From sequence record PP925835.1: a stretch of DNA of 64,000 nucleotides; one strand, 5' to 3'. Position numbers and translations under genes: made by a program. Of this stretch, positions 2,002-2,842 are shown piece after piece. Position 1 is the first letter of the stretch. Each line of letters opens with the position of its first letter. The notes beneath the pieces are model-generated. The model did no database searches. It was not told the DNA's origin and was given only the letters and a program-made list of their open reading frames with translations. Source of the DNA: Escherichia phage Nernie.

Positions 2002-2502
2002 ATACTTTCTGTACTATAAAACCGACTAAAAATCAAGATAATTCTGATTTATTGCGCTTTTAAGAAAGTAGGCTCAACAAATAGTAAGTTATATGGGGCA
2101 ATAGTATGAAAAATCATCTATTCAGATAAAAATAACTTTGCGCAATAGTAGTAATATTTTTCTTGACAAGAAAGATTTCTTTGTGTTCACATAGCGCCCC
2201 CTGGAGGGTGGCGCATTATGATCATCAGTATTATTCTTCCCTATGTTTATTATATGCAGCTTATATTATAGCCAATGTTCTAAACATTAGCTAATAATAA
2301 CGCATCGCAACAATGTAAGGGATACAATATACCATGTATATTGTTGCGCTTGCAATTGTTGCAAGCTACATAAGCACAAATAATAACTATCGGTGATGGT
2401 TATTATGTGGGGTGTGTAGTTGCGTTATTATTAGCCGCCTATGTGTCCGGCATAGGCTGCTAATGATACGCTTGCGAATTATATTTCTTGTTATAGTTAT
2501 TG

Positions 2503-2550
2503 TATGAAATGATTACTATATGGAATGATTACTGTATGAAATGGTTATTT
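2503..2550. repeat. three tandem ~16-bp direct repeats
   Basis: tgaaatgattact / tggaatgattact / tgaaatggttatt in series; contains the AATGATT half-site. Confidence 0.5.
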
Positions 2551-2650
2551 AGATAATAAATAGGAAGGTAAAGATTAGATCATAAATAGATAGGATATTA
2601 ATTATTTAGTAATGTTACTAACAATTTAATAGTTACTTTGTGCAACAATT

Positions 2651-2695
2651 AGATAGATTATAGTTATAGTTTTAAAGGTTAGATAGATTATAGTT
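2651..2695. repeat. direct repeat agatagattatagtta x2
   Basis: Two copies 29 bp apart, with a related copy (ggttagatggtcataagtta) near 2823. Confidence 0.5.
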
Positions 2696-2842
2696 AGCTT
2701 AATAATGATTTATATTAGTTATTGTTGTTTAATATAAGGTTATCAATGAGATAGTAACAGTAAGTTATAAATAAAGGTGAAATAGTTAGCTTTAATTTAG
2801 TTAGATAACTTATTATTTTATAGGTTAGATGGTCATAAGTTA

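Follow-up and report, generated by a model that had tools for sequence, protein, structure and literature searches.

Transcription-primed origins of replication include the RNA II pre-primer of ColE1, the primary origin of T7 (promoters and an A+T-rich stretch), and oriF and oriG of T4; in the T7-type origins, T4 oriF, and ColE1, a transcript lies beside an A+T-rich stretch. Another class of described initiation sites, the single-strand initiation (ssi) or primosome-assembly sites, comprises G4 oric, the n' site of phiX174, the plasmid sites ssiA and ssiB, and the minus-strand origin of M13. Here, we analyze 64,000 nucleotides (nt) of DNA from Escherichia phage Nernie (sequence record PP925835.1; the whole stretch is called the window below) and describe in it a Y-shaped folded element at positions 2290 to 2465 of the plus strand. 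It is a cis-acting or non-coding folded element of phages, absent from Rfam and from the literature that we found, and it probably acts in starting replication or in processing the genome ends.

The locus resembles the transcription-primed origins in being non-coding, with a folded single-strand domain directly upstream of a meltable A+T-rich tract that is kept in all lineages. Furthermore, relatives of the phage have a T7-like replisome, and the strand-asymmetric composition of the locus is compatible with a displaced plus strand. It differs from these origins in several respects: no promoter was identified, there is no RNA II sequence or Rfam similarity, the locus stands at the end of a linear genome beside a direct terminal repeat (DTR), and its A+T-rich tract varies in sequence and in repeat number. 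With the ssi sites it shares a multi-hairpin fold of about 100-180 nt that is formed by one DNA strand only and whose pairing is kept by compensatory change. However, those sites belong to phages with single-stranded DNA (ssDNA) and to plasmids, not to large lytic phages with double-stranded DNA, and the invariant or nearly invariant G·U pairs of the element, together with its large strand bias under RNA folding parameters, fit RNA better. One of its loops, that of the hairpin called P5 below, reads GTGTC in most homologues and GTTTC in 4 of the 23 full-length ones (L013, L017, L020, and L034); GTGTC is one of the pentamers recognized by the gp4 primase of T7. Finally, the locus is unlike iteron origins in having no direct repeats of fixed sequence and number among relatives.

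A conserved folded element of the plus strand

The consensus structure of the element has 53-55 pairs, arranged as follows (percentages refer to paired alignment cells).

2290..2465, plus strand: Y-shaped folded element of about 175 nt, a three-way junction of P1, P2, and P4 followed by the 3' hairpin P5; 24 distinct homologues
2290-2304 with 2421-2435, plus strand: P1, closing helix of 15 bp; 100% paired in the 24 sequences
2307-2321 with 2347-2362, plus strand: P2, long hairpin; 93.7% paired in the model-fitted alignment
2364..2421, plus strand: P4 arm, in which P4 itself is 2365-2371 with 2414-2420; 100% paired, one invariant G·U
about 2375-2378 with 2407-2410, plus strand: P4a, found in single-sequence folds only
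2383-2391 with 2395-2403, plus strand: P4b hairpin; 99.5% paired, compensatory changes in 6 of 9 pairs
2437-2444 with 2450-2457, plus strand: P5 hairpin of 8 bp with loop GUCCG; 100% paired, 3 compensatory pairs

The 24 distinct versions were gathered from GenBank phages, IMG/VR, and metagenome contigs. They come from Justusliebigvirus, Phapecoctavirus, and phages of Klebsiella and Citrobacter, and they represent about 7-8 lineages of one subfamily. Positions 2285-2470 of the plus strand fold at -82.2 kcal/mol, versus -48.5 +/- 3.6 for dinucleotide shuffles (z = -9.5), and none of 200 shuffles equals this value. RNAalifold recovers the same fold unaided, with 48-53 pairs, 13-15 of them compensatory, and single-sequence folding gives the same Y shape in 23 of the 23 full-length homologues. 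In the MAFFT alignment, which was not fitted to any model, 95.0% of the cells are paired, 14 pairs show double changes, and the covariation is 0.207 (0.091 when shuffled). The model-fitted alignment leans towards the structure and gives nearly equal figures: 98.1%, 15 double-change pairs, and 0.241 (0.102 when shuffled). For either alignment, none of 500 shuffles, in a control that ignores phylogeny, reached the observed covariation, and slid partners are paired in 25-51% of the cells in the former and 24-53% in the latter.

The individual helices show how the pairing has been kept. P1 has three compensatory pairs (AU/CG, CG/GC, and GC/CG/AU). In P2, which is part of the minimum free energy (MFE) fold of all 23 full-length homologues, pair 2312/2357 is seen as AU, UA, GU, and GC and pair 2311/2358 as UA and CG; an apical extension of this hairpin (2324-2332 with 2336-2344) is specific to Justusliebigvirus. 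P4b remains paired where nearly its whole sequence has been replaced, e.g., in L017 and CitTr1. In P5, UA/CG swaps occur between near-identical relatives, pair 2442/2452 being U-A in phage ukendt and C-G in phage EcG1. Hence, these are recent double substitutions and not one old event. P5 could be extended by pairing 2430-2435 with 2459-2464, in competition with the outer 6 bp of P1. The junction of P1, P2, and P4 has 0-2 unpaired bases, and the loops of P2 (CAU, UCAUUA, UAAUA, GAAGCAUUA, and others) and of P4b (GGU, ACC, and AGG) vary freely. Inspection by eye of the P4b and P5 loops and of the G-rich internal loop found no consistent covariation that would indicate loop-loop or pseudoknot complementarity. 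A three-way-junction ribozyme of the hammerhead type was also considered by eye and rejected, the junction being nearly without unpaired conserved bases.

The element stands out from the gene-free gap in which it lies. Across genera, positions 2290-2465 are about 80% identical, and the rest of the gap is mostly unalignable or weakly similar (in Phapecoctavirus and the Klebsiella phage). Within the genus, the variable columns amount to 2.8% in the core, 25% in the preceding spacer, and 13% in the following tract. The gap holds a second block conserved in sequence (2931..3128, 3.0% variable columns within the genus), which serves as an internal negative control: there, RNAalifold finds 3 pairs, no covariation, and no consensus fold. 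Conservation alone therefore does not create apparent structure in this gap. The block is probably protein-binding DNA.

Searches with a covariance model find exactly one copy of the element per phage, and the element occurs in 132 phage records, all of them phi92/phAPEC8-like. No element was detected, by blastn or by the covariance model, in the more distant neighbourhoods of gp30.8 homologues (L007-L010), and the gene layout of L007 is different. Pattern scans of IMG/VR, metagenomes, and GTDB gave true members only on phi92/phAPEC8-like contigs; the other candidates from these scans (L027, L032, L036-L040, and L041-L044) were discarded as chance matches. Plasmids and 5,426 Escherichia coli genomes contain no element, nor was a copy found in the bacterial genomes searched with the covariance model. 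Rfam 15 gives no match at gathering thresholds over the whole window, and the best matches of an E-value search of 1400-3300 are eukaryotic snoRNA and miRNA noise, with 11-21 bits versus thresholds of 39-100.

Which strand folds can be read from the wobble pairs. Among 13 pair columns there are 123 G·T cells versus 0 A·C cells, and three G·U pairs vary little or not at all (GU in 24/24, UG in 23/23, and UG in 22/24). With RNA parameters, the MFE of the plus strand is better than that of the minus strand by 17-26 kcal/mol in every homologue. The acting form of the element is therefore a folded single strand, namely, the plus strand of the window, which is antisense to all the neighbouring genes. 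Folding with DNA parameters gives a significant result as well (z = -9.7).

A previous reading of the window by a model that saw only the letters and their open reading frames (ORFs), called here the sequence-only reading, had picked out five features between 2200 and 2700 as parts of a structured, non-coding region:

2306-2314 and 2340-2348: 9-bp arms CGCAACAAT and ATTGTTGCG, with a 25-nt spacer
2348-2366: palindrome GCTTGCAA-ttg-TTGCAAGC
2437-2443 and 2451-2457: GCCTATG and CATAGGC
2503-2547: 16-bp tandem repeat (TGTATGAAATGATTAC-like); 2.8 copies, 86% matches, and score 69 in Tandem Repeats Finder
2649-2666 and 2679-2696: duplicated TTAGATAGATTATAGTTA, 18 bp, the copies 100% identical in the window

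All five exist in the sequence, with offsets of 1-4 nt, and to them we add a perfect long-range inverted repeat of 15 nt (2290-2304 and 2421-2435). The region is indeed non-coding: no ORF of more than 43 amino acids (aa) overlaps 2200-2700, and an ATG with a Shine-Dalgarno-like sequence (2929, plus strand) is lost in close relatives. That it holds a structured nucleic-acid element is borne out by the fold and by the covariation across related phages. As to the paired segments, their conservation outside the genus is confined to 2290-2465 and does not extend to the other listed features. The third hairpin, GCCTATG/CATAGGC, is real and corresponds to P5. The first two hairpins do not stand as kept pairings, since only 65.5% of the cells are paired in the counterpart of CGCAACAAT/ATTGTTGCG, and the palindrome GCTTGCAA-ttg-TTGCAAGC is invariant save for one single-side change and thus gives no evidence either way. 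In the conserved fold, both are replaced by P2, which takes one half from each of the two motifs and covaries. In particular, the centre base of this palindrome and a base 45 nt upstream (in the spacing of the window) change in concert, as AU, UA, GC, and GU, which is the signature of P2. The invariance of the palindrome segment is probably explained by its ability to form both pairings, and a switch between the two hairpins and P2 is possible.

The two repeats fared differently. The 16-bp repeat is present in 1, 2, 3, or 4 copies in six close relatives whose genomes are otherwise 93-98% identical, is absent from Phapecoctavirus in the cross-genus alignment, and is already listed, as a plain repeat_region, in the records of phages inny and muut. 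The duplication of TTAGATAGATTATAGTTA is exact only in this window; in relatives the copies have diverged from each other, and in Phapecoctavirus they cannot be aligned. We do not retain either as a meaningful feature: both behave like slippage products within a compositionally constrained tract.

Position beside the terminal repeat

The phage is a Justusliebigvirus (phi92-like), the window being about 95% identical to AV123, ALITA, EmilieFrey, phi92, and others. The gap around the element, of 1.7 kb and without credible genes (1484-3162), is bounded by genes of the minus strand: a small one at 1067-1483 and, at 3163-3546, a gp30.8-like one (Pfam PF06019). Its other main parts are the following:

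1733..2074: DTR of 342 bp, present as a single copy in the assembly and aligned to both ends of phi92
2466..2842: extreme A+T-rich tract of 377 nt; 78% A+T, with 4.8% C on the plus strand
3129..3147, minus strand: intrinsic terminator of the gp30.8-like gene (3163-3546), found by a scan and listed as such in the records of phages Paula and ASO2A

The genome in the phi92 record begins and ends within this gap, with 343-bp repeats annotated as DTR-L and DTR-R, and the alignment of the window with both phi92 ends shows identity except for a few bases. The orientation of phi92 is the reverse complement of the window, such that its right genome end corresponds to window position 1733 and its left end to 2074. 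Since both ends map to 1733-2074, the window is a collapsed assembly with one DTR copy. Several GenBank records begin or finish at about 2066-2075. PhageTerm gave a DTR of 342 bp for the relative BME3 (PMC12210895), and other genomes of Stephanstirmvirinae also end in DTRs (PMC12695924). In the orientation of phi92, the region 2200-2700 starts 125 bp inside the right-hand DTR, and the folded element occupies the interval 215-390 bp inside DTR-R, with P1 beginning 215 bp from the DTR boundary. Both DTR boundaries share a motif, RRGTGCT^YAAC, which reads GAGGTGCT|TAAC and AGTAGGCT|CAAC in the window (1724-1736 and 2064-2078) and is clearer in Phapecoctavirus; it is a candidate recognition sequence for a terminase or a nicking enzyme.

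The tract that follows the element is a compositional extreme, as no other 377-nt stretch in the 64 kb has so little C or G on one strand. A C content of 5-12% over about 380 nt of the plus strand is held in every lineage, and the sequence itself is not. The excess of G over C and of T over A on the plus strand is the pattern that would be expected if this strand were often single-stranded or the non-template strand. The order of the parts is also identical in every lineage: a DTR with two boxes resembling the binding site of the iron regulator Fur, a spacer, the element, the C-poor A+T tract, Fur-like boxes, and the conserved block. Counted from the start of P1, the parts lie as follows:

-538 to -732: outer DTR end (AACGCGA)
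about -600 to -300: two Fur-box-like sites inside the DTR
-184 to -277: inner DTR boundary (CTCAACA)
0: folded element (start of P1)
immediately 3' of the element: about 380 nt poor in C on the plus strand
+370 to +610: one or two more Fur-like sites, none detected in CitTr1 and L019
+657 to +837: gp30.8 terminator, with the sequence-conserved block before it

As the region is non-coding, carries a covarying fold, and adjoins the genome end, the three suggestions made in the sequence-only reading (structured non-coding RNAs [ncRNAs], an origin, or a packaging-related site) remain the leading readings of the locus.

A candidate role in replication initiation and its rivals

The reading that we favour, although we would not yet call it probable, is that the element at 2290-2465 works in cis as part of a region for replication initiation at the genome end. 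Its folded form would be either a plus-strand non-coding transcript read away from the DTR or a displaced plus DNA strand of identical sequence. In both cases, the stable Y would form immediately upstream of the easily melted tract 2466-2842, and it might there help to form or to position a primer or a primosome. The transcript route would resemble ColE1 RNA II, T7, and T4 oriF, and the displaced-strand route the single-strand initiation sites. The flanking Fur-box-like operators may control whether transcription enters the region. We consider it probable that the element is made as RNA, a form supported by the invariant or nearly invariant G·U pairs and by a strand bias specific to RNA parameters; ssDNA, to which the lack of an identified promoter points, is a less probable but substantial possibility. 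A replisome of PolA and a T7 gp4-like primase-helicase has been described for the related phage rV5 (PMC3606486).

A number of points weigh against this placement. Some concern expression. A scan for sigma-70 promoters in the window, L011, L013, and L035 gave only 9/12 matches, at chance frequency. The one promoter-like feature close to the element, a TAnAAT box that abuts P1 in several lineages, is without a -35 partner and is missing in this genus. A scan for intrinsic terminators in four lineages found none above chance beside the element and none on the plus strand in 1300-3400; P5 is not a canonical terminator because no U-tract follows it, the next sequence being GCUAAUGAUACG. In lineages outside Justusliebigvirus, the plus strand carries, just after CTCAACA, a short hairpin that is GC-rich, shows compensatory changes, and ends in a T-rich tail (in L011, L012, L013, L017, L020, L028, L030, L034, and L035; it is absent in the window at 2075-2110). 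Given this terminator-like hairpin after the DTR boundary, transcripts from the DTR may stop before the element. Others concern the fold and the tract. Under DNA parameters the strands differ by just 4.7 kcal/mol, the plus strand being the more stable, and as the homologues amount to only about 7-8 lineages, the independent compensatory events are fewer than the compensatory cells. The A+T tract is not conserved in sequence, varies between 1 and 4 copies of its repeat, and has no fixed iterons. Its C-poor plus strand would give a C-rich, G-poor minus-sense RNA, on which Rho could load and so end read-through from the gp30.8-like gene.

The remaining points concern the location of the origin. 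The literature that we found reports no mapped origin in rV5, in phi92-like phages, or in any other relative. A search for work on transcriptomes, ncRNAs, or origins of these phages gave nothing relevant, and the rV5 paper marks just a "non-coding" box. Moreover, the window has a second gene-free gap (13842-14654), between convergent genes, which is A+T-rich and repeat-rich and contains Fur-like boxes. It has a sigma-70 promoter near consensus (TTGACA-17-TATACT, 11/12, at 13844-13872), a 29-bp repeat, and a 67-bp tandem repeat in 1.9 copies (14310-14439). The sequence after this promoter (13878-14000) was considered as a possible ncRNA and rejected, its folding not being significant (z = -0.06). 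This gap is an equally plausible candidate for the origin, or it may be a regulatory hub.

Among the rival explanations, the one that survives best, although we consider it unlikely, is that the element is a discrete and stable trans-acting ncRNA of about 170 nt, with its ends clamped by P1 and P5. Such an RNA would act as a decoy, a regulator, or an anti-defence RNA by binding a protein of the host or of the phage, and its place at the genome end would be incidental. Near-complete pairing, a helix that joins the ends, and three invariant or nearly invariant G·U pairs are typical of stable protein-binding RNAs, the strand difference in folding energy is strong and specific to RNA parameters, and the element is highly conserved and strictly single-copy in each genome. 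The TAnAAT box stands directly 5' of P1 in Phapecoctavirus and in several metagenomic lineages, and if transcription began about 7 nt past it, AUUAGC would be available for an extension of P5. Yet a -35 element, a terminator, and a relative in Rfam are all lacking, the box itself is absent in this genus, and no conserved single-stranded seed or loop motif was found; the loops of P2 and P4b vary freely. A role in cis is suggested instead by what all lineages share: a set place with respect to the DTR boundary and an unchanged order of the neighbouring DNA motifs.

A role in cis could also lie in packaging or concatemer processing, with the folded strand or a cruciform marking the right end for the terminase or aiding DTR duplication, as was proposed for the T7 hairpin. 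For the concatemer junction of T7, a passage in PMC4281155, citing Chung & Hinkle 1990, speaks of repeats, the promoter phiOR, and a hairpin intermediate in DTR duplication. Our locus is similar in being a gene-free stretch just inside the right DTR, with inverted repeats, short repeat arrays, and probable cis signals. The T7 hairpin, however, is a simple palindrome that acts as DNA, whereas here we find a three-way junction with one-strand wobble and no sequence similarity. These phages use short exact DTRs, phages of the T7 type must duplicate their repeat, and a DNA hairpin containing the repeat was seen in T7 infection, according to the same passage (PMC4281155). Furthermore, the element lies 215-390 bp inside DTR-R, the distance from CTCAACA to P1 is similar in all lineages (184-277 nt), and short conserved DNA motifs abound in the gap, among them a second TAACGCGATTT in several lineages. 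This reading is weakened because the two DTR boundaries already carry a motif of their own, RRGTGCT^YAAC, which could direct cutting alone, and because a cruciform or a protein-bound palindrome would not tolerate the one-strand G·T pattern (123 versus 0). Standard nick-and-displace models would, in addition, not make the plus strand of this segment single-stranded at the right end, and the C-poor tract would be unexplained. Overall, we regard a packaging signal as distinctly unlikely.

A variant of this idea, which we hold to be a long shot, is that a stable Y RNA is a structural cofactor of end processing or packaging in DTR myoviruses that use a terminase; this would be an analogue of the phi29 packaging RNA (pRNA; RF00044, about 120-174 nt) outside the phi29 group, encoded beside the DTR. 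The element shares with the pRNA a three-way junction, paired 5' and 3' ends, and a place near the genome end, the junction being a generic and not a diagnostic feature. In contrast to the pRNA, it has no Rfam match, its P2 and P4b loops have no mutual complementarity in any lineage, so that no intermolecular ring would form, and its host genome is that of a DTR myovirus with a terminase, not of a protein-primed podovirus.

Could the conserved sequences be duplex protein-binding sites only, i.e., operators or iterons such as GCTAATAAT and GCTTGCAAT-N-ATTGCAAGC, with the fold as a by-product? The 9-1-9 palindrome GCTTGCAAT-N-ATTGCAAGC does have invariant arms, motifs of the GCTAAT type are repeated in several lineages, both upstream of P1 and after P5, and the neighbouring block 2931-3128 behaves like protein-binding DNA. 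But the centre base of the palindrome covaries with the base 45 nt upstream, the arms of P1, 116 nt apart, change together (CG to GC and AU to CG), P4b stays paired through near-total sequence change, and the strict asymmetry between G·T and A·C would have no explanation. We thus consider this reading highly improbable, a shade more so than the RNA cofactor. Chance self-complementarity in A+T-rich junk near the genome end has a practically negligible probability: low-complexity DNA of this kind does yield many short repeats, and the tandem repeat and the 18-bp duplication look like neutral slippage, but for 2290-2465 chance is refuted by the comparative data (z = -9.5, about 80% identity across genera versus unalignable flanks, and 0/500 shuffles reaching the observed covariation).

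Neighbouring motifs and implications

Fur-box-like sites were recognized by the 19-bp consensus GATAATGATAATCATTATC or by the 7-1-7 motif TGATAATnATTATCA. Those around the element are:

1983..2001: palindrome in the DTR, 17/19 to GATAATGATAATCATTATC, containing the exact 7-1-7 motif TGATAATGATTATCA
1788-1806: weaker site in the DTR
2842-2860 (16/19) and 2900-2918 (14/19): two sites with a conserved TTGCATTATGCA between them

These four sites are predicted from sequence and match the E. coli Fur box at 14-17 of 19 positions. They flank the fold, none being inside it, and their binder may be Fur or a phage protein. The window has 36 Fur-like matches of at least 14/19 versus 4.9 expected, with clusters at 1782-2001, 2842-2918, and 14124-14218, and their positions relative to the element are kept in all lineages. 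The clusters may mean that a lytic phage is under iron or Fur control, or else that an operator of the phage's own imitates the Fur box. No report on Fur boxes in lytic phages was found in the literature, and a BLAST search of a Fur-like cluster against E. coli genomes was uninformative.

Other short motifs recur around the DTR. The terminal TAACGCGATTT recurs once more in several lineages (L013, L028, L030, and L035), at +583 to +733 from P1 and about 75 nt ahead of the gp30.8 terminator; its counterpart in the window (3055-3065) has diverged to TACCGCGATCT and falls within the conserved block that has no fold. The sequence ACACACCCC is found twice to the left of the DTR (1577-1585 and 1654-1663), and its exact complement GGGGTGTGT stands at 2409-2417 in the element, where it is part of the G-rich internal loop and the 3' strand of P4. 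This inverted motif brackets the DTR and could be due to chance. Between the DTR and the element, a GC-rich hairpin, GCGCCCCCTGGAGGGTGGCGC, at 2194-2214 lies downstream of a perfect TTGACA (2163-2168) without a good -10. The hairpin is present in the window and in phi92, and other lineages have no counterpart at that position.

As to genes, a scan of the window for tRNAs and tmRNAs found none. A minus-strand ORF of 65 aa (2911-3108) was rejected as a gene on finding, in an alignment inspected by eye, that it is broken in Phapecoctavirus. Some records (e.g., PQ529420, PP925843, OR525700, and PQ438393) fill 2200-3160 with 7-11 tiny "hypothetical proteins," and most leave it without genes; the tiny ORFs are probably artefacts of gene calling in a structured stretch that does not code. 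Six records labelled as phages of Campylobacter, Pseudomonas, or Acinetobacter (MG065645, MG065689, MG065639, MG065656, OR584014, and OP562383) are about 95% identical to the E. coli phages described here across the gap. Their host labels are probably wrong, or the samples contaminated.

The phi92/phAPEC8-like phages (Stephanstirmvirinae) are common, have a broad host range on E. coli and Klebsiella, and are part of the BASEL collection and of therapy cocktails. Their GenBank records open at arbitrary points, and the element and the 16-bp repeat provide landmarks for orienting and typing these genomes, the repeat being a possible typing marker. The Fur-like operators that bracket the element raise the idea that a lytic phage couples a function of its genome end to the iron status of the host. 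For work on the origin and the packaging signals of Stephanstirmvirinae, the element offers a small, sharply bounded, and strongly constrained target beside the DTR. It could show how replication begins or how the genome ends are processed in these phages, or it could turn out to be a new stable phage RNA.

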